A stretch of 64,000 bases of DNA from a bacterium (GTDB lineage: Bacteria > Krumholzibacteriota > Krumholzibacteriia > LZORAL124-64-63), in the NCBI GenBank assembly GCA_031441465.1, contig JANOEP010000039.1, positions 32,001 through 96,000 on the forward strand. The letters are read 5' to 3'. The number at the start of each line of letters is the position of its first letter. Within the stretch, counting starts at the first letter, position 1. This document shows, piece after piece, positions 466-56,681 of this stretch. Below the pieces are notes generated by a model. That model saw only the letters and a program-made list of their open reading frames with translations. It was not told where the DNA came from and searched no databases. The position numbers and the translations under genes were made by a program.

Positions 466-3400
466 TCAGCGCACGAGCACCATCTTTCGGCTAGCGCCCA
501 GTTGCCTGCCGTCCTGGTACAGGCGGTACAGGTAGACGCCGCTGGCGACCTGGCGGCCGCGCTGGTCGGTCCCGTTCCAGTCCAGGGTCGCCGGACCCGC
601 CGGCAGACGGCCGGCGCGGATCCGCAGCACGAGGATGCCGCGCGAGTCGTAGATCGCGACTTCGGTGTCGCCGTCGTGCTGCAGGTTGAACTGGAGCCGG
701 GTGCTCGGGTTGAAGGGATTGGGCTGGTTGCTCAGCTGCAGTCCTTCGGCCGGCCGCGCGGGCCGGGTCGGGTCCGCGGTGGCGAATTCCAATGCCGGCG
801 GCGAGTTGCCCACGGTCAGGGACGCCGGCACCAGAACCAGCGGCGCGGTCGGGTCGTCGCTCCGGAAGATGATCGTGGCGCGGTGCTCGCCGGCGTCGAC
901 GCCCGTCGCGTCGAAGGTCGCCGTCACGTCCTGCGTCCCGCCGGACGGTACCGTGCCCGTCTGGGGCGCGACCGTCAGCCAGGTCGCGCGCAGGCCGATC
1001 AGGGCGATCTCGTTCTCCGCCAATTCGATCGCGTCCCTCAGGCCGTCGCCGTCGTCGTCGGCCGTGTAGTTCGCCATCTGGAAGGCGTTGAAGATCGCGC
1101 GGCCGGTCGCGTCGGCGACGATCGCGCCGGAGTTCGGGAAGCCCTGGAACGCGGCCAGCTGCCGGGCGCCGGGCAGCGTCGCGACGAGCTGGCCGTCGCG
1201 CGTCAACGGGTTCGCGTTCCAGTGGAGGTTCCGGATCGCGTTGGGCCACAGGAAGCAGGCGTGATCCTCCTGCACGGCCGCGACGTCCAGCGGGGTGGTG
1301 ATGGTGGACTGGTAGGACACGCCTAGGCGCCCCATCAGGCTGTGGTTGGAGACGAGGTACACCGACCAGTCGGCGTAGATCAGGGAGCCGCCGGCGTCGA
1401 GGTGCGACGTCAGGGCGTTGAGGGCCGTGAACGACGTCACTTGCGAGTAGTTGCTCACGATCATCAGGTCCCAGGGGCCGTCGTTCGCGGCGGCGCCGAG
1501 GAATTCCGGCCAGGTGGTCGCCAGGGTGTGCCCGAGGCCCAGGCGCTGCAGCGCCAGGCTGAAGGCGTCGTTCACCGGCTCGTAGGGGGCCAGCAGCAGC
1601 GTGCGGGGGGCGTCGCGAGTCGCGCTCTCGCGGCTGTAGATGCGTCGACCGAAGGGAGCGGGCGACTTCGCCCCGCCGTTGTCGACGGCGTCGGCGGGAG
1701 CGGAGGGGCCCACCGGCAGGTCGCGGAACGTGAAGGCGGAGTCCTCCGGTTTCTCCCCGGACGAGGCCGTCAGGTGGGTGGACGCCGACCAGATCAGCTG
1801 GCCCGGGCCCAGGTTGCCGATCGTCAACTGGAACGCGGCGGTGCCGCCGGGCGACAGCGTCGCCGACAGCGAATCCGGAGCGACCACGATCGCCGGCGGG
1901 GCCAGTCCGGTACCGGACAGCGGCAGCGTGATCACCGGTTCGTCCCTGTCGCCGCTGATGATCGTCAGCGTGCCGGTGACCGGGCCGAGCGTCGCCGGGG
2001 CGTAGGTCAGGGTCACGTATTGCCGGTCGCCGGGCGCCAGCGTGATCGGCCCGACGGGTGCGACCGTGAAGTCGGCGTGGCTCGATGACAGGGTTCCGAT
2101 CGTCAACGGCTCGCAGCCGTCGTTGGCGACGGGGATCGACCTCGCGGCCGGGTTCCCGACGTGCTGCGCCCCGAAGGCGAGGTCCGTGGGCGTCACCGCG
2201 ATGTCCGGCTCGCCGATCAGCGCGAGCGTGACGCCCACCGGGACGACGGGCGTGTGCGGGTCGTCGCTGGCCACGTCGATCCGGGCGCCGAATATGGCGT
2301 TGCAGAGGTCCGTCGTGCTGTGCGTCACCGTCGCGTCGATCGACACCGCCACGTCCTGCGAGAGTCCCGGCGGGACGGTGCCCGAGGTCGGCTGCACCGT
2401 CAGCCAGGGCGCCACGCCGGCGACCAGCACGATCTCGTTCTCCGCGAGTTCGACGATGTCGCGCCGGCCGTCGCCGTCGTCGTCGCCGGTGTAGAGGTTG
2501 GTCAAGAACGCGTTGAAGATGGCGCGGCCGGTCCCGTTCAGGACGATCGCGGCGGAAGTCGCGAGGCCCTGGAACGACGCCAGCGTGCGCGCACCCTCGT
2601 GGACGGTGATGATCTGGGCCTTGATGCCGGCCGGATTCAGGTCCCAGCGGAGCTGGTGCACGGCGTTGGGCATCCGGAAGCAACGGTGGTCCGGGTCGGT
2701 CGCCGCGAAATCCAGCGGCGTGTAGGTGAACTCCCGGTAGGTGAAGCCCAGGCGGTCCAGGAGTTCGTGATCGCGGTCGTAGTGGATCGTGTGGTCGGCG
2801 AAGATCAGGGCGCCGCCCGCGTCGAGATGGTCCACGAGGTCGTCGAACGCGTACTCGTCGGAGGATTCCTGGTTGTTGTTGACGATCACGAGATCCCAGG
2901 GTCCGCCGGCGGCAAGGAGAGCCCGAAGGTCGGCATAGTCCGACGCCGCGGTGTAGCTCCAGCCCAGACGCTGCAGCGCCAAGAGGTAGACGTCGGTCGC
3001 GATGTCGTCGGAGGGCAGCAGCAGGACGCTCGGCGTGCCGCGCTCCGCGGCGGCGGAAACGTCCAGGGGGGTCACCGACAACGACCAGTGCAGGTCGATC
3101 TGCCCCGGGTTGGCGATCTTCAGGTAGCGCAGGTCGACGCCGTCGGTGAAAAGCGCCGAAGCCAGAGTGTCCGGCGTCACGGTGATCAGGGCCGACGGCA
3201 GGCCGGTCCCGGAGAGCGGGACCGTGATCGTCGGCTCGTCCAGGTCGTCGCTCGCGATCGTCAAGGCGCCCGCGACCGGGCCCTCGGTGACCGGAGCGTA
3301 GGTGACCAGCACGATCCGCGTCGAGTCCGGCGCCACGGTGAACGGGCCGGTCGGCGAGACGGAGAATTCGGCGTGGTTCGAGGTCACGGCCGACACCGAC

Positions 3401-6400
3401 AGCAGATCGCAGCCGGTGTTGGCGACGGTCAGCGTCGCGACCGCCCGGCCGCCGAGGTACTGCTGCCCGAAGGCGACGACCGCCGGCGCGGCCGAGATGT
3501 CCGGCTCGCCGTGGATGTCGAGCGCCACCGGCAGGACGGCCACGGGCGTGACCGGGTCGTTGCTCGCCACGCAGATGCGCGTCGCGAAGGAGCCGCCGCA
3601 GATGCCCGCCGCGCTGAACCAGACCTTCGCCTCCTGCTTCTCTCCGGCCGGAATCACGCCCGCCTCGGGGTCGATCTGCACCCAGCCCGCGCCGGCCAGC
3701 CAATCGAACGCCTGGTTGCCGAAGAGGCGGTTGTCGTCGGCGTTCAGGCCGTACACGCTGAACATCTCGTCGCTCAGCGCGATGACGCGGCCGCCGCCCA
3801 CTTGGCTCCACGCGCCCGTCATGACGCCAGAAGCGTCCCGGACCAGGATCCGGGCCGGCATGGCGACCCTCGACAGACGGGCGCCCGGGCTGTCCAGGAA
3901 GAGGCCGTCGACGCCGGCCGTGGTCGCGTGTTCGGTGATCCGGATCGTCGTCCCGCTGTGGGCGTCCGTGCTGGAGTAGGTGATGCCGGCGCCCGCGGCG
4001 GACAGGATCGCGTTGAAGGAGGATGCGGACGCGTTGTAGTCGCCTTCCAGGAGCATGCCGCCGCCTTCGTTCACCCAGGCCGCCAGCGCCGACCTCTCCG
4101 CAGTCGTGAAGGACCAACTGCAGTTGATGGACCAGAAGATGTCGTAGCCGGACAGGAGGTCCGGGGTGATCGCGGCCGAGTTGTACGAAATCTCCGCACC
4201 GCGCAGCTCGAGGTCGCCGACCATGCCGGTCCAGTTCGAGGAGGTGGCCTGTCCGTGGCGCCGGTCCCACATGATGCGCACGCCGGTCAGGTCGCGCAGG
4301 TCGGCCGTCAGTTCTCCGTCGGACGTCGCTGCCGGCGTCGCCTGCACCGGCATCGCGTCGGCTGCTGGCGCCAGGTGCGGCAGGGTGTACCGGCGTCGGG
4401 CGGCGATCTCTTCGACCGTGGCCGACCAGACCAGGTCGCTCCGTCCGGAGTTCTTGATCGTCAGGGGTCGCGCAGTTTCGTCTTCGTAGGGCTCGAGGAC
4501 GACCGACATCGAGGCAGGTGACAGCGCGATCACCGGCGGCGCCACGCAGGCGCCCGTCAACGCCACGGCGACCGCGGGTTCGTCCGGGTCGTCGCTGACG
4601 ATCGTCAGCGTGGCGGCGTGCGTGCCGACGGCGGCCGGCGCGTAGCCGACCGTCACGGCCAGCGCGCCGCGCGGCGCCAGGGTGGCCGGCCCGGCGGGGG
4701 CGACCGTGAACGCGCTGTCGTCGGACGTCAAACTGGAGATCGTCAGGGGGGCGCAGCCGTCGTTGACCAGGGTCAGCGTGTCGGCGACCACGGCGCCGGG
4801 GTAGAGGGTCGCGAAGGCCAGGGCCGCCGACGTGACGGTGAGGTTCGCTTCGCCGAGCAGTGCGAGGGAGACCGGCACCGCGATCTCGGGCGTCAGGGGA
4901 TCGTTGCTCGCCACGGTGATGCGCGCCGTCAGCGTCGTGCCGCAGCGGCCGGTCGCGTCGAACGCCACCGCGAGGTCCTGCGCGCTTCCGGGCGGGATCA
5001 CGCCCGAGAGCGGTGCGATCCGCAGCCAGTTATCCGTCGCCAGCCAGTCGAACACCTGGTTGCCGAACCGGCGGTTGTCGTCGACGTCGAGGTCCGTGTC
5101 GCGGAAGAGTTCTTCGCTCAGGGCGATCACGCGGCCCTTGCCCACCTCGCTCCAGGCGCCCACGATGTGGCCGGTCGCATCCCGGAACAGGACCCGCGCC
5201 GGGTAGACGACCGTCGCCAGCGTGGCGTTCGGCTGGTCGAGACGGAGGCGCGAAACGCCCGCCGTGGTCTCGTGCGGCGCGATGTCCGTCGTCGTCCCGG
5301 CCTGCGCGTTGTCGGTGGAGTAGCCGATGCCGGCCCCCGCCGCGGTCAGGATCGCGTCGAACGCGGCTTGGAACGTGTCGTTGTCGCCTTCCAGGAGCAT
5401 CCCGCCGCCGTCCCGCAGCCAGGAGCCCAGCAGGTGCGTCTCCGCCGCCGACCAGCCCGTCGCGCAGTTGACGGTCCACACGAGGTCGAATCCGTCCAGG
5501 AGGTCCGAGGTGACCGGCATGGTGTTGACGACGACCTCGGCGCCGCGCTGCGCGAGGTCGTCGATCATCTGCGACCAGGCGGCCGGTTGGACCTGCCCGT
5601 GGTGCGCGGCCCACATGATGCGCAGGCCGGTCAGGTCGCGCAGGTCGGCCGTCGGCTCCCCGCCTCGCGCCGGCGAGACTCCCGCGTCCGGGGCGTCGTA
5701 CCCGATCCGCGCGCTCCAGATGAGGTCGCTCAGGCCGGTGTTCTCGATGCTCAGGGACTGCACCGATTCGCCGCCGGAAATGAGTCCGACCGCCAGCGAG
5801 TCGGGATACACGGAGACCACGGGTGCCGGCACTCCCGTGCCGGACATCGGCAGCGAGATCGTCGGTTCGTCGGGGTCGTCGCTCGTGATCGTCAGCATGG
5901 CGGTGACCCGGCCGACGGTGGTCGGGCGGTAGGTCGCTTCCACGGTGTGCGGCTGGTCCGGGGCGACCGTGGCCGGGAACGGCGTGGGTGACGTGAACTG
6001 GTCGCTGTCCGAGGACGTGGCGACGAGCGTCAGATTTCCGCAGCCGTCGTTGAAGAGGCTCAGCGACCTGGTCGCCGCGGCGCCGATGAGGACGGGTCCG
6101 AAGTTCAGATCGGCCGACGTGACGGTGACGTCCGGCCCCTCGCTCACGCGCAGCGACACCGGCGTGGCGATCGCGGGCGCGAGAGGGTCGTTGCTCGTGA
6201 GATTGATGTGCGCCGCGTGGTCGTTGCCGCACATGTTCGTGGCGTCGAAGGTCACCGTCAGGTCCACGGACTCGCCCTCGCGCACGACGCCCGTGTCCGG
6301 CGCAACCGACAGCCAGGTCGGGCCGAAGCCGACGAGCATGATCTCGTTCTCCGCCAGTTCGACGGCGTCCTGCACGCCGTCGCCGTCGTCGTCGGCCGTG

Positions 6401-8739
6401 AAGTTCGCCCACTGGAATCCGTTGAAGACGGTGCGGCCCGACGCGGCGAGGACGACCGCGCCGGAGCCGGGGTAGCCGTCGAACGCCGCCAGCTGCACGG
6501 CGTCGGGTCGCACCGCGACGATCTGGCCGTCGCGCGTGGATTGGTTCAGATTCCAGCGCAGGGCGCTGATCTGGTTGGGATGGCGGAAACAGAGGTGGTC
6601 GGGGTCGACCGCCGCGACGTCCAGGGGCGTCGTGAACGACGACTGGTAGTCGACGCCGAGGCGTGCCAGCAATTCGTGCTCGTTGTAGCTGTAGACCGCC
6701 CAGTCGGCGAAGATCAGGGAGCCGCCCCGGTCGAGGTGGTCGACGAGCGCGCCGAGACCGGTCGCCGTCGTGGGGGCGTAGTAGTTGTTCACGATCACCA
6801 GATCCCAGGGTCCGTCGGCGGTGAGCGCCGCTTCCAGTTCCCCCCAGTCCGGCACCATGGTGAATCCGAAGCCCAGCCGCTGCAGCGCCAGGTTGAAGGT
6901 GTTGGTCGACCCGCCGATGGAGCTGAGCAGCAGGATGTGCGGTTCGTAGTCGGCCCGGCGGTCGCCGGTGTAGACGCGCCGCCCGGACCAGGGTTCATCC
7001 GGCGGCAGGCCGTTGGTCTCGCCGGACTGCGGCGCGGTCGAGCGCGGCGGCAGATCGCTGACCGCGAAGGCGGCGCCGCGCGTCTGTGCGGCGAGGGCGG
7101 CAGCGGCGCTCACGTGCGCCGACCAGACCAGGTCGATCTCCCCGGAGTTGCTGATCGTCAGCCGCGCGGTTCCGATCTGGCCGGGATGGAACGACATCGC
7201 GAGCGAATCGGGCGCGACGCCGATCACCGGCGCCGTCGCGGCCGTTCCCGACAGGGGCACCGCGAGCGACGGCAGGTGCGGGTCGTCGCTCAGGATCGTC
7301 AAGACGCCGAGGTCGGTGCCGGATCCCGTCGGCGTGTAGGCCGCCAGGACGGTCTGCGTCGTTCCGGGCGCCAGCGTGAACGGGCCGGCCGGAGAGACCG
7401 TGAACACGGTCTGATCAGTCGTCAGGGAGGCGATCGTCAGCGGCGCGCACCCGTCGTTGGACAGGTCCAGCGACGCGAACGCGGCGTGCCCGACCGGCCG
7501 CAGGCCGAAGTCGAGGCGCTCCGGATCGATCCCGATGACCGGAACGGCCGGCACGCCGAACGACACCGGCACCTCGACCGGCGGCACGAACGGGTCGTCG
7601 CATTCCACGACGATCAGCGCCGAGCGCTCGTCGCCGCAGAGCGCGGCCGCGTCGAAGGCCACCGACACGGTCTGGGTGCCGCCGGCCGGCAACGTGCCGG
7701 TCTGCGGAGCGATCGACAGCCAGCGGGCGCCGGCGGCGACCAGGACGATCTCGTTCTCGGCCAGTTCGACCATGTCGCGCACGCCGTTGCCGTTGTCGTC
7801 GGCCCCGTAGTTCGCCACTTGGAAGGCGTTGAAGATGGCGTGCCGCGACGCGTTGATGACGATCGCACCGGAATCCGGATGGTCCGGGAACTCGGCCAAC
7901 CGCAGTGCGCCGGCGAGGGCCGCGACGACCTGGCCGTCGACCGGAAGCTGATCCAGGTCCCAGTGCAGGTCGGTGACCACGTTCGGTTGCCGGAAGCAGC
8001 GGTGCCGGGGATCGAGCGCCGAGAAATCCTGCGGCTGGGTGAAGAACGACCGGTAGGAAACGCCCAGGCGCGCCAGCAGGCTGTGGTTGGCGTAGTCCGC
8101 GACCGACCAGTCGGCGTAGATCAGCCGGCCGCCGGTGTCGAGATGCCCGACCAGCGCCGCGAGGGTCGCTGCCGGCGCGGTCAGGGAGTAGTTGTTGACC
8201 ACGACCAGATCCCAGGGGCCGTCGTCCGTGAGCGCCGCGGTCAGCGTCGCCCAGTCCGTCACCACGGTGTGACCCCAGCCCAGGCGCTGCAGCGCCAGCG
8301 AGTGGGCGTCGTTCACGGGGTCGAAGGTGGCGAGGAGCAGGACGCGGGGCCCGCCGCTCGGCAGGCGGTCGTTGCTGTAGATGCGCCGGCTGAACGGGGG
8401 CGGGGCCGCGTCGCCGTTGTCGGTGCGCGCGGGCAGGTCGGACCGGTCCGCCGGGTCGTCGCGGTAGGTGAGGCCGGCGCCGCGCGTCTGCGCAGGGAAC
8501 GTCCCGGGCATGGAGATGTAGGCGGTCCAGGCCAGGGGGGTCTTGCCCGTGTTGCTGATCAGCAGGGAACTCGTCGTGGCGCCGTCGGGCGGGAGTTCGG
8601 CCGACAGCGAATCCGGTTCCACGACGAGGGCGGCGGCGGCTGTTTCGGGATACGACGCGGCCAGGATGAGTCCGCCCAGAGCGAGCGGGATCAGCGAGAC
8701 GGCGAACGCGGACAGGGAGGTGCAACGCCAGCGGGACAT
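466..8739 (-). CDS. Giant secreted repeat protein (2757 aa): six Ig/ASH (choice-of-anchor D-like) plus alpha/beta modules and a C-terminal FlgD-Ig/T9SS type A-like domain
   Basis: N-terminal signal peptide (...PETAAA); recurrent LxFG...NDGCxxLxI...LTIxSDDPDEP motifs; C-terminal NQPNPFNPST...IYDSRG...WNGTDQRGRQVASGVYLYRL; GGAGG upstream of the ATG. Confidence 0.85.
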   Translation of the reverse strand: MSRWRCTSLSAFAVSLIPLALGGLILAASYPETAAAALVVEPDSLSAELPPDGATTSSLLISNTGKTPLAWTAYISMPGTFPAQTRGAGLTYRDDPADRSDLPARTDNGDAAPPPFSRRIYSNDRLPSGGPRVLLLATFDPVNDAHSLALQRLGWGHTVVTDWATLTAALTDDGPWDLVVVNNYSLTAPAATLAALVGHLDTGGRLIYADWSVADYANHSLLARLGVSYRSFFTQPQDFSALDPRHRCFRQPNVVTDLHWDLDQLPVDGQVVAALAGALRLAEFPDHPDSGAIVINASRHAIFNAFQVANYGADDNGNGVRDMVELAENEIVLVAAGARWLSIAPQTGTLPAGGTQTVSVAFDAAALCGDERSALIVVECDDPFVPPVEVPVSFGVPAVPVIGIDPERLDFGLRPVGHAAFASLDLSNDGCAPLTIASLTTDQTVFTVSPAGPFTLAPGTTQTVLAAYTPTGSGTDLGVLTILSDDPHLPSLAVPLSGTAATAPVIGVAPDSLAMSFHPGQIGTARLTISNSGEIDLVWSAHVSAAAALAAQTRGAAFAVSDLPPRSTAPQSGETNGLPPDEPWSGRRVYTGDRRADYEPHILLLSSIGGSTNTFNLALQRLGFGFTMVPDWGELEAALTADGPWDLVIVNNYYAPTTATGLGALVDHLDRGGSLIFADWAVYSYNEHELLARLGVDYQSSFTTPLDVAAVDPDHLCFRHPNQISALRWNLNQSTRDGQIVAVRPDAVQLAAFDGYPGSGAVVLAASGRTVFNGFQWANFTADDDGDGVQDAVELAENEIMLVGFGPTWLSVAPDTGVVREGESVDLTVTFDATNMCGNDHAAHINLTSNDPLAPAIATPVSLRVSEGPDVTVTSADLNFGPVLIGAAATRSLSLFNDGCGNLTLVATSSDSDQFTSPTPFPATVAPDQPHTVEATYRPTTVGRVTAMLTITSDDPDEPTISLPMSGTGVPAPVVSVYPDSLAVGLISGGESVQSLSIENTGLSDLIWSARIGYDAPDAGVSPARGGEPTADLRDLTGLRIMWAAHHGQVQPAAWSQMIDDLAQRGAEVVVNTMPVTSDLLDGFDLVWTVNCATGWSAAETHLLGSWLRDGGGMLLEGDNDTFQAAFDAILTAAGAGIGYSTDNAQAGTTTDIAPHETTAGVSRLRLDQPNATLATVVYPARVLFRDATGHIVGAWSEVGKGRVIALSEELFRDTDLDVDDNRRFGNQVFDWLATDNWLRIAPLSGVIPPGSAQDLAVAFDATGRCGTTLTARITVASNDPLTPEIAVPVSLALLGEANLTVTSAALAFATLYPGAVVADTLTLVNDGCAPLTISSLTSDDSAFTVAPAGPATLAPRGALAVTVGYAPAAVGTHAATLTIVSDDPDEPAVAVALTGACVAPPVIALSPASMSVVLEPYEDETARPLTIKNSGRSDLVWSATVEEIAARRRYTLPHLAPAADAMPVQATPAATSDGELTADLRDLTGVRIMWDRRHGQATSSNWTGMVGDLELRGAEISYNSAAITPDLLSGYDIFWSINCSWSFTTAERSALAAWVNEGGGMLLEGDYNASASSFNAILSAAGAGITYSSTDAHSGTTIRITEHATTAGVDGLFLDSPGARLSRVAMPARILVRDASGVMTGAWSQVGGGRVIALSDEMFSVYGLNADDNRLFGNQAFDWLAGAGWVQIDPEAGVIPAGEKQEAKVWFSAAGICGGSFATRICVASNDPVTPVAVLPVALDIHGEPDISAAPAVVAFGQQYLGGRAVATLTVANTGCDLLSVSAVTSNHAEFSVSPTGPFTVAPDSTRIVLVTYAPVTEGPVAGALTIASDDLDEPTITVPLSGTGLPSALITVTPDTLASALFTDGVDLRYLKIANPGQIDLHWSLSVTPLDVSAAAERGTPSVLLLPSDDIATDVYLLALQRLGWSYTAASDYADLRALLAAGGPWDLVIVNNNQESSDEYAFDDLVDHLDAGGALIFADHTIHYDRDHELLDRLGFTYREFTYTPLDFAATDPDHRCFRMPNAVHQLRWDLNPAGIKAQIITVHEGARTLASFQGLATSAAIVLNGTGRAIFNAFLTNLYTGDDDGDGRRDIVELAENEIVLVAGVAPWLTVQPTSGTVPPGLSQDVAVSIDATVTHSTTDLCNAIFGARIDVASDDPHTPVVPVGVTLALIGEPDIAVTPTDLAFGAQHVGNPAARSIPVANDGCEPLTIGTLSSSHADFTVAPVGPITLAPGDRQYVTLTYAPATLGPVTGTLTIISGDRDEPVITLPLSGTGLAPPAIVVAPDSLSATLSPGGTAAFQLTIGNLGPGQLIWSASTHLTASSGEKPEDSAFTFRDLPVGPSAPADAVDNGGAKSPAPFGRRIYSRESATRDAPRTLLLAPYEPVNDAFSLALQRLGLGHTLATTWPEFLGAAANDGPWDLMIVSNYSQVTSFTALNALTSHLDAGGSLIYADWSVYLVSNHSLMGRLGVSYQSTITTPLDVAAVQEDHACFLWPNAIRNLHWNANPLTRDGQLVATLPGARQLAAFQGFPNSGAIVADATGRAIFNAFQMANYTADDDGDGLRDAIELAENEIALIGLRATWLTVAPQTGTVPSGGTQDVTATFDATGVDAGEHRATIIFRSDDPTAPLVLVPASLTVGNSPPALEFATADPTRPARPAEGLQLSNQPNPFNPSTRLQFNLQHDGDTEVAIYDSRGILVLRIRAGRLPAGPATLDWNGTDQRGRQVASGVYLYRLYQDGRQLGASRKMVLVR

Positions 8740-37992: not shown

Positions 37993-38784
37993 TCAGCGGG
38001 CCGCCGCGGCGCGGCGCGCCCGCAGCCACCCGTACCAGCCCTCGAGCCCCTCGCCGCGGGTCGCCGACAGCTCCACGAAGGCCAGCGCCGGGTTCACGCG
38101 CCGCGCGGCGGCCTTGCAGGCCTCGACGTCGAAGTCGACGTGGGGCAGCAGGTCGGTCTTGTTGATCACGCACAGCTGCGCCGCGGCGAACATCGTGGGG
38201 TACTTCTGCGGTTTGTCGTCGCCCTCGGTCACCGAGATGATCACGACCTTGGCGTGCTCGCCCAGATCGAACAGGGCGGGGCAGACCAGGTTGCCCACGT
38301 TCTCGATCATCAGCACGCCGCCCGCCGGCACCTCCAGGTCGGTCAGCGCGCGGCGGATCATCTCGGCGTCCAGGTGGCAGCCGAAGCCGGTGTTGATCTG
38401 CACGACCGGAGCGCCGGCGGCCGCGATGCGCTCGGCGTCGTTGAGGGTCTGCTGGTCGCCCTCGATCACCGCCAGCGGCATCTCGCCCCGGAGGTCGCGG
38501 ATCGTGCGCTCGAGCAGCGAAGTCTTGCCGGACCCGGGCGACGAGACGAGGTTCAGCGCCAGCACGCCGCGGCCTTCGAACCAGCCCCGGTTGCGCTCGG
38601 CCACCAGGTCGTTGCGCCGCAGGATGTCCTGCTCCACGGACAGCCGGCGGCCGCCGCCGTGATCGTGATCATGATGATGGTCGTGAGGATGATCATGGGG
38701 ATGATCATGGGGATGATCGTGCTCGCCGGGTTTGCGGTAGGTCACCGCGTCGGGGGGCTGGTTGCAGCCGCACGTGTCGCACAT
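37993..38784 (-). CDS. hypB: Hydrogenase nickel incorporation GTPase HypB
   Basis: N-terminal MCDTCGC, His-rich tract, SPGSGKT, CHLDA, ENVGNLVCP and NKTDL. Confidence 0.95.
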   Translation of the reverse strand: MCDTCGCNQPPDAVTYRKPGEHDHPHDHPHDHPHDHHHDHDHGGGRRLSVEQDILRRNDLVAERNRGWFEGRGVLALNLVSSPGSGKTSLLERTIRDLRGEMPLAVIEGDQQTLNDAERIAAAGAPVVQINTGFGCHLDAEMIRRALTDLEVPAGGVLMIENVGNLVCPALFDLGEHAKVVIISVTEGDDKPQKYPTMFAAAQLCVINKTDLLPHVDFDVEACKAAARRVNPALAFVELSATRGEGLEGWYGWLRARRAAAAR

Positions 38785-38807
38785 GACGCCCTCCCGGGGC
38801 CTGGTGT

Positions 38808-39146
38808 TCAGTCGATGTCGAGGCAGGCGACGCGCAGCTCGCGTCCGCCCACGACCGCCAGGCACCCGCCGCAGGCGGGGCACAGGGCCGCATAGAAGTC
38901 GATCTCGGTTTCGGCGCCGCAGGCCGGGCAGAGGCCGCGGCCGGGGATCTCGCGGACGACCAGTTCGGCGCCGGCGGCCAACGTCCCGAGGCGGGCCGTC
39001 TCGAAGCAGAACACCAACGCGGACACTTCGACGCCGGCTAGGCGCCCGATCTCCACCGTGACGGTGTTGATGCGCGCGGCGCCCGCCTCGCGGGCCCGTT
39101 CCTCGGCGATCTCGAGGATGCCGGCGACCAGGGTCATCTCGTGCAT
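38808..39146 (-). CDS. hypA: Hydrogenase nickel chaperone HypA
   Basis: MHE start, CPAC twice, GGREL. Confidence 0.95.
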   Translation of the reverse strand: MHEMTLVAGILEIAEERAREAGAARINTVTVEIGRLAGVEVSALVFCFETARLGTLAAGAELVVREIPGRGLCPACGAETEIDFYAALCPACGGCLAVVGGRELRVACLDID

Positions 39147-39258
39147 GCCGCCTCCCGGATCCCAATATAACACTTGGGGTTGGGACCACAAGCCGACCTT
39201 GCGGCCGGAGGTTCCCCGTTGCACCTTGGAGGGGCCGCACACCCACAGGAGGGGTCCC

Positions 39259-40666: not shown

Positions 40667-41110
40667 TCAGCGGTACAGGGCTTTCACGGCTCCCCAGGAT
40701 CCGCTCTCGTAGGGCACGATCTCCAGCATCTGGTAGTCGCAGTGCAGGATGTTGCCGGGGTCGATCGAGTTGCCGTTCAGTTCGACGCGGTACCAACCGA
40801 TCGGGTCGGGGATGGCGTCCTCCGCGGGGTCGTACGCGAAGGCGATCGTCTGCCCGACATTCAGCTCCCACATCTCGGGCAGCCCCACACAGCCGTACAC
40901 GCACTCCATGGTGCCGAGATGGTAGATGAAACAGGCGGGGAAGGAATTGAAGGAGGCCTGGTTCGGGCCCGCGTTGTGGATGGTGATCGGCACGATGTCG
41001 CCCTGGGAATACTGCGTCGCATCCGTGACGACGCTCAGCTGGGCGACGGCCGATGCGGCCGTCATGCACAAGACTGCCAAGACGATCAGGATGCGAATCG
41101 TTCTGCTCAT
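40667..41110 (-). CDS. Small secreted Ig-like protein ending in ESGSWGAVKALYR
   Basis: Signal peptide (..ASAVA-Q); beta-rich TDATQYSQGD..ITIHN; GGAGG RBS. Confidence 0.8.
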   Translation of the reverse strand: MSRTIRILIVLAVLCMTAASAVAQLSVVTDATQYSQGDIVPITIHNAGPNQASFNSFPACFIYHLGTMECVYGCVGLPEMWELNVGQTIAFAYDPAEDAIPDPIGWYRVELNGNSIDPGNILHCDYQMLEIVPYESGSWGAVKALYR

Positions 41111-55419: not shown

Positions 55420-56118
55420 ATGCGACACGCGGCGATGCTGACGTTGTGCCTGCTGACGACGGCCGGCGTGCTGCCGGCCTCGGCCCAAGTTCCCTTCCTG
55501 CCCCTTTCTCCGGGCTGCGCCTGGACCTACACCGACGGGGCGGGGCACGAACTCACCATCGAGGCGGCCGGGTACGCCGTGGTCCAGGGCGAGAACACCG
55601 TCGAACTGGTCTGGCGGGAGCCGGGAGACGTCTTCCACAATTTCTGGAGCCTGGGACCGACGGGCGCCGTGTTGCTGCACGGCGCCTACAACGAGGACGG
55701 TTTCGTGGCGAGCTACTCGCCGCCGATCCAGTGGCTGCCCGCGGTCTCGGCCACGGAACGCTGCTGGAGCACGACCTCGCGCGTCTACGGGAGCCTCGAT
55801 GCCTCCCAGCCCTTGGAAGAATTCACCTTCTCCTACTGTGTGGTCGGAGGCGGGATCTTGACCGTGCCGGCCGGCGAGTTCGACACCGTCGCGGTCTCGG
55901 ACGCCTCGCCGCCTCTGCTGACCGGCGCGGACGGCGGCGCGGCCTGCGATCTCCTCGGGCGCCGGCGCGACGGGGCGCCACGGCAGCAGGTTCCGCGCTC
56001 CTTCTCGGCGGGTGTCGGCCTGGTCAAGGAAGGCGACTGGGAACTCGCGAACTACGGCGGCCCGACACCGTTCGGGACGTCGAGCTGGAGCGAGGTCAAG
56101 GCGCTGTACAGCAGATAG
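55420..56118 (+). CDS. Secreted hypothetical protein (DUF3108-like motifs) ending in SSWSEVKALYSR
   Basis: Signal peptide (..PASA-Q); PLSPG..WTY, TVPAGEFD and GVGLVK; GGAGG RBS. Confidence 0.75.
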   Translation: MRHAAMLTLCLLTTAGVLPASAQVPFLPLSPGCAWTYTDGAGHELTIEAAGYAVVQGENTVELVWREPGDVFHNFWSLGPTGAVLLHGAYNEDGFVASYSPPIQWLPAVSATERCWSTTSRVYGSLDASQPLEEFTFSYCVVGGGILTVPAGEFDTVAVSDASPPLLTGADGGAACDLLGRRRDGAPRQQVPRSFSAGVGLVKEGDWELANYGGPTPFGTSSWSEVKALYSR

Positions 56119-56143
56119 GGAGCGAACCCCGCCGGAACGAACA

Positions 56144-56170
56144 GGGCCGTCCCCCTGAGGGAGACGGCCC
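56144..56170. terminator. Hairpin between convergent genes
   Basis: GGGCCGTCCCCC-tga-GGGAGACGGCCC with one mismatch. Confidence 0.6.
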
Positions 56171-56195
56171 CGTACTCGAAATCGATCCCCGCCGA

Positions 56196-56681
56196 TTACC
56201 GATAGAGCGTTTTGACGGCTCCGAACGTCATGGCCTCGTTGCCGACGATGTTGTCGAGCGTCATCTGGCCGCGGATTTCGCCGCCGGGAAAGGTCGTGCT
56301 GTGGACATTGAGGTAGATCGATCCCGCGACGAGGTTGGCGTATTGGGTCGCGGTCATGTTCCAGGTCCCGGCGACCGGCGAGCCGATCGGCAAGCCGAAG
56401 GCCACCGGACCGTTGACGCCGGCCACGGCGGTGTGGAAGTGAACGGCGGTTTGCGAACTCGATAGGCCGCTGAACTGCAACTGGTAGGTGGCGACCAGGG
56501 TCTCGGTGTTGACGGTGAGTGCGGCGATGCCGAGGGCGCTGCTGGCGTTGGGCGGGACTTCCGAAGCGCCGGTGAGCATCGTGGTGTAGATGGCCAGATC
56601 GGCGTAGGCGGCGCCGGCGCCGAGGCCGAGCACCAGGACGGCCGCTGCGGCGACCAAGGCGGACTTCTTGAGCAAACGCAT
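56196..56681 (-). CDS. Secreted CHRD-domain protein ending in NEAMTFGAVKTLYR
   Basis: LTGASEVPP, GLSS...HFH.A..G.NGPV and YLNVHSTTFPGGEIRGQ; signal peptide. Confidence 0.9.
   Translation of the reverse strand: MRLLKKSALVAAAAVLVLGLGAGAAYADLAIYTTMLTGASEVPPNASSALGIAALTVNTETLVATYQLQFSGLSSSQTAVHFHTAVAGVNGPVAFGLPIGSPVAGTWNMTATQYANLVAGSIYLNVHSTTFPGGEIRGQMTLDNIVGNEAMTFGAVKTLYR

Follow-up and report, generated by a model that had tools for sequence, protein, structure and literature searches.

How do four unrelated genes in one stretch of bacterial DNA come to end in nearly the same residues, and does their common tail act as a sorting signal? The stretch – the window, analyzed over its whole length of 64 kb (G000:C39:32001-96000) – lies on contig C39 of the genome under study (G000; 3.49 Mb, 69.6% GC, 74 contigs). 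A preliminary description of the window had proposed that the tail is a portable tag, read by machinery encoded elsewhere. Here, we follow the checks it suggested: scanning the genome for strict C-terminal position, examining export signals and cargo diversity, searching for an existing Pfam or NCBIfam model, and comparing the tag with type IX secretion system (T9SS) genes across genomes. Judged from sequence comparison, the tail is an abundant, multi-phylum and strictly C-terminal tag on small proteins exported by the general secretory (Sec) pathway, and it has the look of an address or anchoring label that has not been described before.

Four tagged genes in the window

All four tails lie where they had been placed and end as described, and the four carrier genes – those encoding a tagged protein – fall into separate BLASTP families, as expected from their reportedly unrelated bodies. 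The first enters the window as its 3′ part on the plus strand (1-347; open reading frame (ORF) 3-347); the genome sequence places its start 366 nt upstream of the window, at G000:C39:31634, and the full gene encodes a 237-aa protein of no Pfam or NCBIfam family, with the signal peptide MRRIYGMIVVLCVCAFAATAGA... and the C-terminal end ...NEAGSWGGVKAAWR. Its tag, ITANEAGSWGGVKAAWR (294-344), directly precedes the stop codon (345-347) and matches a profile of the tail, described below, at 29.5 bits with 0 residues between match and stop. The second gene (40667-41110, minus strand) encodes a 147-aa protein with a signal peptide and no assigned family that ends in ...YESGSWGAVKALYR; the last 17 residues, EIVPYESGSWGAVKALYR (40670-40720, minus strand, stop at 40667-40669), match at 32.0 bits.

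The other two genes are convergent, with 77 nt between their stops, and form the tail-to-tail pair noted previously. The third (55420-56118, plus strand) encodes a 232-aa protein with a signal peptide and no assigned family, ending in ...FGTSSWSEVKALYSR; its tag, PTPFGTSSWSEVKALYSR (56062-56115, plus strand), has an extra Ser ahead of the final Arg and matches at 26.6 bits. The tag is kept in 10 of 10 homologues at 59-68% identity, with W223, E225 and K227 invariant. The fourth (56196-56681, minus strand) encodes 161 residues made up of a signal peptide, a CHRD domain (PF07452, E 1e-28, residues 33-140) – the sole known domain among the four carriers – and the tag, with the end ...NEAMTFGAVKTLYR; the last 17 residues, NIVGNEAMTFGAVKTLYR (56199-56249, minus strand), are a Phe-for-Trp variant and match at 31.8 bits. 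Sec-type signal peptides had been reported for the three complete genes, and a basic n-region, hydrophobic core and AxA-like site are recognizable in each by eye and by a crude rule, and likewise in the full form of the first gene. Contig C39 has five carriers, four of them inside the window, and the remaining window segments give no match to the profile, in agreement with the earlier remark that none of the window's cytoplasmic or membrane proteins ends this way. The shared end had been put at about 14 residues; the sharing stands, but the conserved stretch is longer, at about 17.

Consensus and position of the tag

The tag has the consensus V-x-N-E-x-x-[ST]-W-[GS]-x-[VI]-K-[AS]-[LM]-[YF]-[RK]-stop. 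A core regular expression, [WFY][GSA].[VIL]K[ATSG][LAMIV][YWF], was run against a six-frame translation of G000 (47,850 stop-to-stop segments, 6.27 M residues) and gave 59 matches, 56 of which have 0-3 residues between them and a stop; with reversed sequences there was none, and with shuffled sequences a single, non-C-terminal one, so chance is excluded as the source of the tail. A profile built from the 56 C-terminal matches identifies 69 C-terminal carriers in G000, and all 68 matches of at least 9.1 bits end at most five residues from the stop.

Conservation across the 56 tails extends well upstream of the core. Counting from the Trp as position 0 (W 50, F 6), V is found at -7 in 39 tails, A, P or G at -6 in 49, N at -5 in 29, E at -4 in 39, and S or T at -1 in 43; downstream, +1 is G in 44 and S in 12, +3 is V, I or L, +4 is K, +5 is A, S or T, +6 is L or M, +7 is Y in 46 and F in seven, and the last position, +8, is R in 37 and K in six. 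When key positions of the expression were freed one by one, K was recovered in 37 of 37 matches, W and F in 37 and six, and G and S in 28 and nine. Neither Pfam nor NCBIfam has a model that covers the tail, and in both libraries 28-residue tails match nothing at E-values up to 10; nor did we find a published description of the tag in the main text of open-access papers.

Tagged proteins are small, exported and diverse

With the tails removed, the 69 carriers form 52 BLASTP body families, the largest having five, four and four members. The 67 complete carriers are 121-381 aa long (median 227 aa), and 66 of them have a signal-peptide-like N-terminus, compared with 585 of 2,721 genes overall (Fisher 2e-44), where signal peptides were called by a crude in-house rule rather than SignalP and the background is a set of crudely called genes. 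Against the same 2,721 calls, the 69 tagged genes make up about 2-2.5% of the genome's genes. Gene calling by third-position GC missed six of the 69 carriers, and some carrier genes are therefore atypical in composition. Cysteine accounts for 2.3% of carrier residues versus 1.2% genome-wide, and in 31 of 69 carriers a Cys precedes the Trp by 9-16 residues.

The cargo is varied. Pfam domains are matched on 12 of the 69 carriers (LTD three times, CBM_20, Temptin_C, CHRD, DUF642, Kre9_KNH, TSP_3, Cohesin and a weak PPC), and the bodies match the NCBIfam models choice_anch_E (77.5 bits against a cut-off of 23.8) and choice_anch_J (38.5 bits against 30). Matches below cut-off are to choice_anch_C and DNRLRE, to the LTD part of ExeM/NucH, ExeM being a GlyGly-CTERM family, and to the repeats of MtsC, a MYXO-CTERM family. 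The earlier proposal of a portable tag thus stands as regards portability, C-terminal position, unrelated Sec-exported bodies and the placing of any machinery outside the window; its suggestions of export, processing or attachment are weighed below. A type I secretion C-terminal signal, with which no Sec signal peptide is expected, was rejected given the signal-peptide-like N-termini of 66 of 67 carriers.

The tag occupies the place of other sorting signals

In three carrier families, paralogues in G000 keep the body, and from the same junction onward the tag gives way to a linker followed by a T9SS type-A/FlgD-like C-terminal domain (CTD); one such carrier (L062) is 67%, 56% and 39% identical to its three CTD-bearing paralogues. 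There are about 80 CTD genes in G000, none of whose products (0/80) also bears a tag, and their median length of 817 aa contrasts with the 227 aa of the carriers (Mann-Whitney 1.5e-23). The pattern, as read from these sequences, is one of large proteins with a CTD and small proteins with a tag. It recurs in a genome of genus g33 (G101), in which a 512-aa protein (L228, G101:C2:15514-18885) has three CHRD domains and a T9SS CTD, whereas the single-domain CHRD proteins have the short tag instead.

The CHRD proteins extend this interchangeability to other signals. Among the 120 matches listed, CHRD homologues share a conserved FPGGEIRGQ followed by the tag, by a PEP-CTERM tail or by only a few residues, and two further homologues among them end in ...PVFSNGFE (P0021) or carry ...FFEDGFE near the end (P0022); the CHRD body family therefore has at least four alternative C-terminal endings. 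Domains with differing C-terminal anchors across lineages are what the name 'choice-of-anchor' denotes, and some carrier bodies match such models; the models themselves describe cargo, and their best-matching stretches stop at least 20 residues before the C-terminus.

Several classes of tripartite C-terminal signal are described together with their enzymes, including PEP-CTERM/exosortase, LPXTG/sortase, GlyGly-CTERM/rhombosortase and MYXO-CTERM/myxosortase (10.1101/2023.06.07.544157). The tag resembles these in being short, portable, C-terminal, present on many unrelated exported proteins and variable between lineages, in being interchangeable with PEP-CTERM on homologous CHRD bodies and, among the matches listed, in having a small P-V-E motif upstream of the Trp in other lineages. 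It differs in having neither a membrane-spanning helix nor a basic cluster, with about nine residues after the Trp and the Lys mid-way among them; as observed earlier, it has no transmembrane helix with a basic tail and falls far short of a T9SS CTD in length. NCBIfam sorting-domain models give no match on the 28-aa tails at E-values up to 10, no PEP-CTERM-like tail family was found in G000, and exosortase (PF09721) is absent from this genome, which is 96.8% complete (sortase, rhombosortase and myxosortase were not searched for). The β-signal of outer-membrane β-barrels, a terminal aromatic residue on a barrel protein, was also considered and rejected, since the final residue is R or K in 43 of 56 tags and the CHRD body is a soluble sandwich; the PorV of G000 ends in ...GYDF.

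Distribution across genomes and phyla

The wider distribution of the tag was assessed with a strict DNA pattern (W-G-x-[VIM]-K-x-h-Y-R-stop), tallied by GTDB group rather than by the organism names in record titles. It is matched in 138 of 155 genomes of the phylum of G000, in all 31 genomes of a second phylum (around G167, with RpoB 46-59% identical to that of G000; 6-56 matches per genome), in all 12 of a third (around G158; 11-34 matches per genome), and in one of 41 genomes of a fourth (around G161), where the single match is at a contig edge. The reversed pattern is absent from every genome of all four groups. In a scan of 185,579 species genomes, 80 of the 80 matches listed end in a true stop (TAG 42, TGA 21, TAA 17), although the pattern also allowed TGG. 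The three tag-bearing phyla are uncultured and common in sediments and soils, and the tag is present in nearly every genome of them.

Because the strict pattern recovers only 15 of the 69 carriers in G000, true counts elsewhere are probably several-fold higher, by extrapolation. RpoB identity was abandoned as a means of separating phyla, a family of the same class giving 64% and other phyla 46-67%, as was a contrast between genomes with and without the strict pattern, the 'pattern-poor' genus g33 having a variant tag. Other pattern-poor clades (f6, f9 and part of f3) may have further variants or none.

Three tag matches, one of them doubtful, are found on IMG/VR viral contigs. One such contig (L224, 8 kb) encodes a metallophosphoesterase-like protein with the end ...TPTEDSTWGQVKSLYR, and may derive either from a phage or from host DNA that was misclassified.

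A lineage-specific variant suggests a dedicated reader

Genus g33 is positive by the strict pattern in just one of six genomes. Its CHRD orthologues nonetheless align through the tail, with ends such as ...TWSTLKSLFE or ...TLEDVKALFR, and reveal a variant tag of the form ...W-[ST]-x-V-K-x-L-F-[DE]-stop. With looser patterns, the six g33 genomes have 78 occurrences of ...W-x-x-h-K-x-h-F-[DE]-stop versus 31 ending in ...Y-R-stop, compared with four and 210, respectively, in seven other tag-rich genomes. At +1, g33 tails mostly have S or T where others have G, and genus g35 prefers D; in one g35 genome (G126), five of ten matches read W-D-S-[VL]-K-S-L-Y-R, a third local flavor.

The variant is not confined to one protein family. 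One g33 genome has 20 variant carriers, all with signal peptides, in ten body families, and nine of the 20 (four families) have body homologues among the Y-R/K carriers of G000; in G101, two carrier families have six members each. A joint change at the same three positions of the tail in unrelated g33 proteins is what would be expected of a dedicated, specific reader that binds the tag and has co-evolved with it; the concerted shift is hard to square with a generic lipid anchor or with chance.

Relationship to the type IX secretion system

G000 encodes SprA and a PorU-PorV pair, and SprA exceeds its cut-off in all ten other tag-bearing genomes examined but in none of 14 control genomes. PorP/SprF (TIGR03519), the shuttle of type-B CTDs, has no match in G000, with a model that is equally silent in the control genomes. 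The tag and the type-A CTD (TIGR04183/PF18962/FlgD_ig-like) are alike in several respects: both are at the extreme C-terminus of Sec-exported cargo without a transmembrane helix, both occur in the same genomes and at the same junction on paralogous bodies, and both have a near-invariant Lys near the end (motif E of the CTD) and an L-hydrophobic-basic terminus. The ends of G000 CTDs follow [KR]-[MLV]-x-L-[VL]-[KR], with K or R at -6 in 66 of 80, and the end of the tag is K-[AS]-[LM]-[YF]-[RK]. The two differ in length, the tag having 17 residues and the CTD 60-100, and in the restriction of the tag to small proteins; none of the 69 carriers is matched by the CTD models of Pfam and NCBIfam (TIGR04183/PF18962/PF13860-like).

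There are at least 76-146 TIGR04183 matches per genome in the tag-rich phyla, at least 25-33 in the tag-negative phylum, and at least 53 in G000. Replacement of CTDs by tags in the tag-rich phyla is ruled out by these counts, CTDs being more numerous there.

The literature offers parallels. In type-A CTDs, a Lys close to the C-terminus is described as the sole contact residue that is both near-invariant and functionally important, its partner being PorV (PMC10994853); three-stranded 'short CTDs' of about 60 aa are reported to work as T9SS signals in Prevotella intermedia (PMC11969387); and classes of CTD are described as served by specialized shuttle proteins (PMC12618676). These resemblances are analogies rather than tests.

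Amid three tag carriers at G000:C37:8491-18747 (L032-L034, L214) lies the gene for a PorU-like C25 peptidase paralogue, which has a CTD of its own and matches the PorU model at 107 bits. The PorV orthologues of g33 (L252-L257) end in ...GYRW or ...F[ST]W, and those of other genera (L258-L264) in F, a difference that, from the sequences, is probably a lineage change in the C-terminal signal of the barrel itself.

Predicted structure of the tail

In an AlphaFold2 model of the CHRD carrier (60-sequence alignment), the body has a predicted local distance difference test (pLDDT) score of 98 and the tail forms a detached helix (residues 150-159) at a pLDDT of 58 falling to 47; the tail is thus predicted to be a free appendage outside the CHRD fold. 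The amphipathic helix envisaged previously is not supported by these predictions, since a helix appears only at pLDDT 47-58 and the hydrophobic moment is non-discriminating (0.38 as a helix, 0.37 as a strand). A model of the 232-aa carrier (11 sequences) has a pLDDT of 43 and is unusable, and a predicted complex of PorV (26-341) with the CHRD carrier (28-161) scored 0.00 and counts neither way.

Other features of the window

The first carrier is directly adjoined by a non-carrier that contrasts with it, a 2,757-aa secreted protein (466-8739, minus strand) with four repeats of about 650 aa and a T9SS type-A/FlgD-like CTD (...NPFNPSTRLQF...KMVLVR), to which the PorU model aligns with its CTD part at C39:32517-32738. 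Elsewhere, an ORF on the minus strand (37993-39246) encodes a HypB-like GTPase with a long His-Asp/His-Pro repeat (HDHPHDHPHDHPHDHHHDHDH), and is probably a nickel-storing hydrogenase maturation factor.

Discussion

The reading that we favor, tentatively and at a little short of even confidence, is that the tail is a dedicated post-Sec sorting or anchoring signal, and a minimal one linked to the T9SS. In such a scheme, the carrier would be exported by Sec and would fold in the periplasm, often with disulfides, as its Cys content suggests; the flexible end of about 17 residues would then be bound by one specific protein reader, to which the lineage-wide concerted change of the tag points, and the reader would either pass the small single-domain cargo to the T9SS surface route or itself belong to that route. 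Motif E of the type-A CTD would, on this view, have its counterpart in the invariant Lys at -5 together with the L-hydrophobic-basic terminus.

A number of observations weigh against a link to the T9SS. The co-occurrence of tag and SprA may reflect shared ancestry only, and the T9SS is not sufficient for the tag, because the fourth phylum has SprA and at least 25-33 type-A CTDs per genome and the tag in one of 41 genomes. The Lys is at -5 in the tag versus -6 in CTDs, g33 tails have an acidic instead of a basic terminus, and the tail has no GxY-type motifs and lacks the β-sandwich and motifs B and D that define T9SS CTDs, motif D being the one described in a 2018 preprint as required for binding PorM (10.1101/483123). 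One secretin gene is present in G000, and a type II secretion route for the carriers is possible. Three comparisons, moreover, yielded no reader: the neighboring genes of 63 carriers in G000 show no convincing enrichment (best p 0.018, uncorrected and from crude gene calls); PorV/PorQ copy number is the same in pattern-poor and pattern-rich genomes (2-6 in 30 of 30); and an alignment of six g33 and eight other PorV orthologues contains no acid-to-base change matching the change of R to D/E in the tag, the sole consistent change of charge class in g33 PorV being one column, from M to E.

Several of these points suit a docking or anchoring tag independent of the T9SS, which we consider the most credible of the alternatives though on balance unlikely. 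Here the tail would bind an envelope receptor, in the manner of dockerin and cohesin or of a PDZ domain, or would be cross-linked through its Lys to peptidoglycan or a glycolipid, so that small binding proteins are retained at the envelope or surface, with any crossing of the outer membrane by another route. A specific, co-evolving reader fits this equally well, as do the near-absence of the tag from the fourth phylum in spite of its SprA and CTDs, the lack of a compensating change in PorV, the single secretin and the invariance of the Lys (37/37); Braun's lipoprotein is joined to peptidoglycan via the C-terminal Lys of its ...YRK end, and homologous bodies elsewhere bear anchors of the PEP-CTERM, MYXO-CTERM and GlyGly-CTERM families. 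Neither a receptor nor a transpeptidase candidate emerged, however, and the carrier domains (CBM_20, cohesin, LTD, DUF642, PPC) suggest work beyond the outer membrane, for which an export route would still be needed; the exact swap with T9SS CTDs on paralogues is also simpler if both use a shared route.

Three further explanations were considered, and each seems improbable. A generic in-plane membrane anchor, in which a short amphipathic helix lies on the lipid surface without any protein partner, would accord with the modeled helix at residues 150-159 of the CHRD carrier and with the consensus, in which W, V/I, L/M and Y/F can be read onto one face of a helical wheel flanked by K and R. The low pLDDT of that helix (47-58) and the equal moments for helix and strand (0.38 versus 0.37) count against it, as does the fact that only about ten residues are available; lipid binding does not require a near-invariant W, G/S and K, and lipids hardly explain the concerted shift in g33 from G to S/T, Y to F and R to D/E. 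Slightly less probable still is a processing or quality-control tag. Under this reading the tail, whether a C-terminal propeptide or the recognition site of a tail-specific periplasmic protease or chaperone, would be cut away as the protein matures and would play no part in addressing. The strictly C-terminal position and predicted flexibility of the tail would suit it, and the conserved V-x-N-E upstream of the Trp (8-11 residues) could be a cleavage site, but it leaves unexplained both why the tail takes the place of surface-sorting signals on homologous bodies and why it is restricted to small exported proteins. That the tail has no function of its own, and owes its spread as a cassette to paralogy or gene conversion, we regard as very improbable: there are expanded families (of five, four and four members in G000, and six and six in G101), but these stand against 52 body families in one genome, presence in three phyla, retention of the tag in orthologues at 59-79% identity, and residues that are constrained while codons vary in the lists of pattern matches.

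To our knowledge, every known class of C-terminal sorting signal has led to a dedicated machine, be it sortase, exosortase, rhombosortase or the T9SS. C-terminal sorting signals show where surface and secreted proteins go, and the tag fits no known class, being too short for a T9SS domain and having no membrane helix. We entertain, with less conviction than the favored link to the T9SS, a broader proposal: that the tag is the address label of an undescribed sorting pathway – be it a third T9SS signal class served by a separate shuttle or an independent system for export and anchoring – serving about 2% of the genes of G000 and possibly several-fold more in the second phylum, with a reader that co-evolves with the tag. 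With a profile of the tag, thousands of 'hypothetical' proteins could be assigned at once to the envelope or surface, and the lineage-specific variant offers a direct way to look for the reader. Should the T9SS turn out to read the tag, the minimal T9SS signal would shrink from about 60 to about 17 residues; if the tag belongs to an undescribed pathway, phylogenetic profiling could find the reader.

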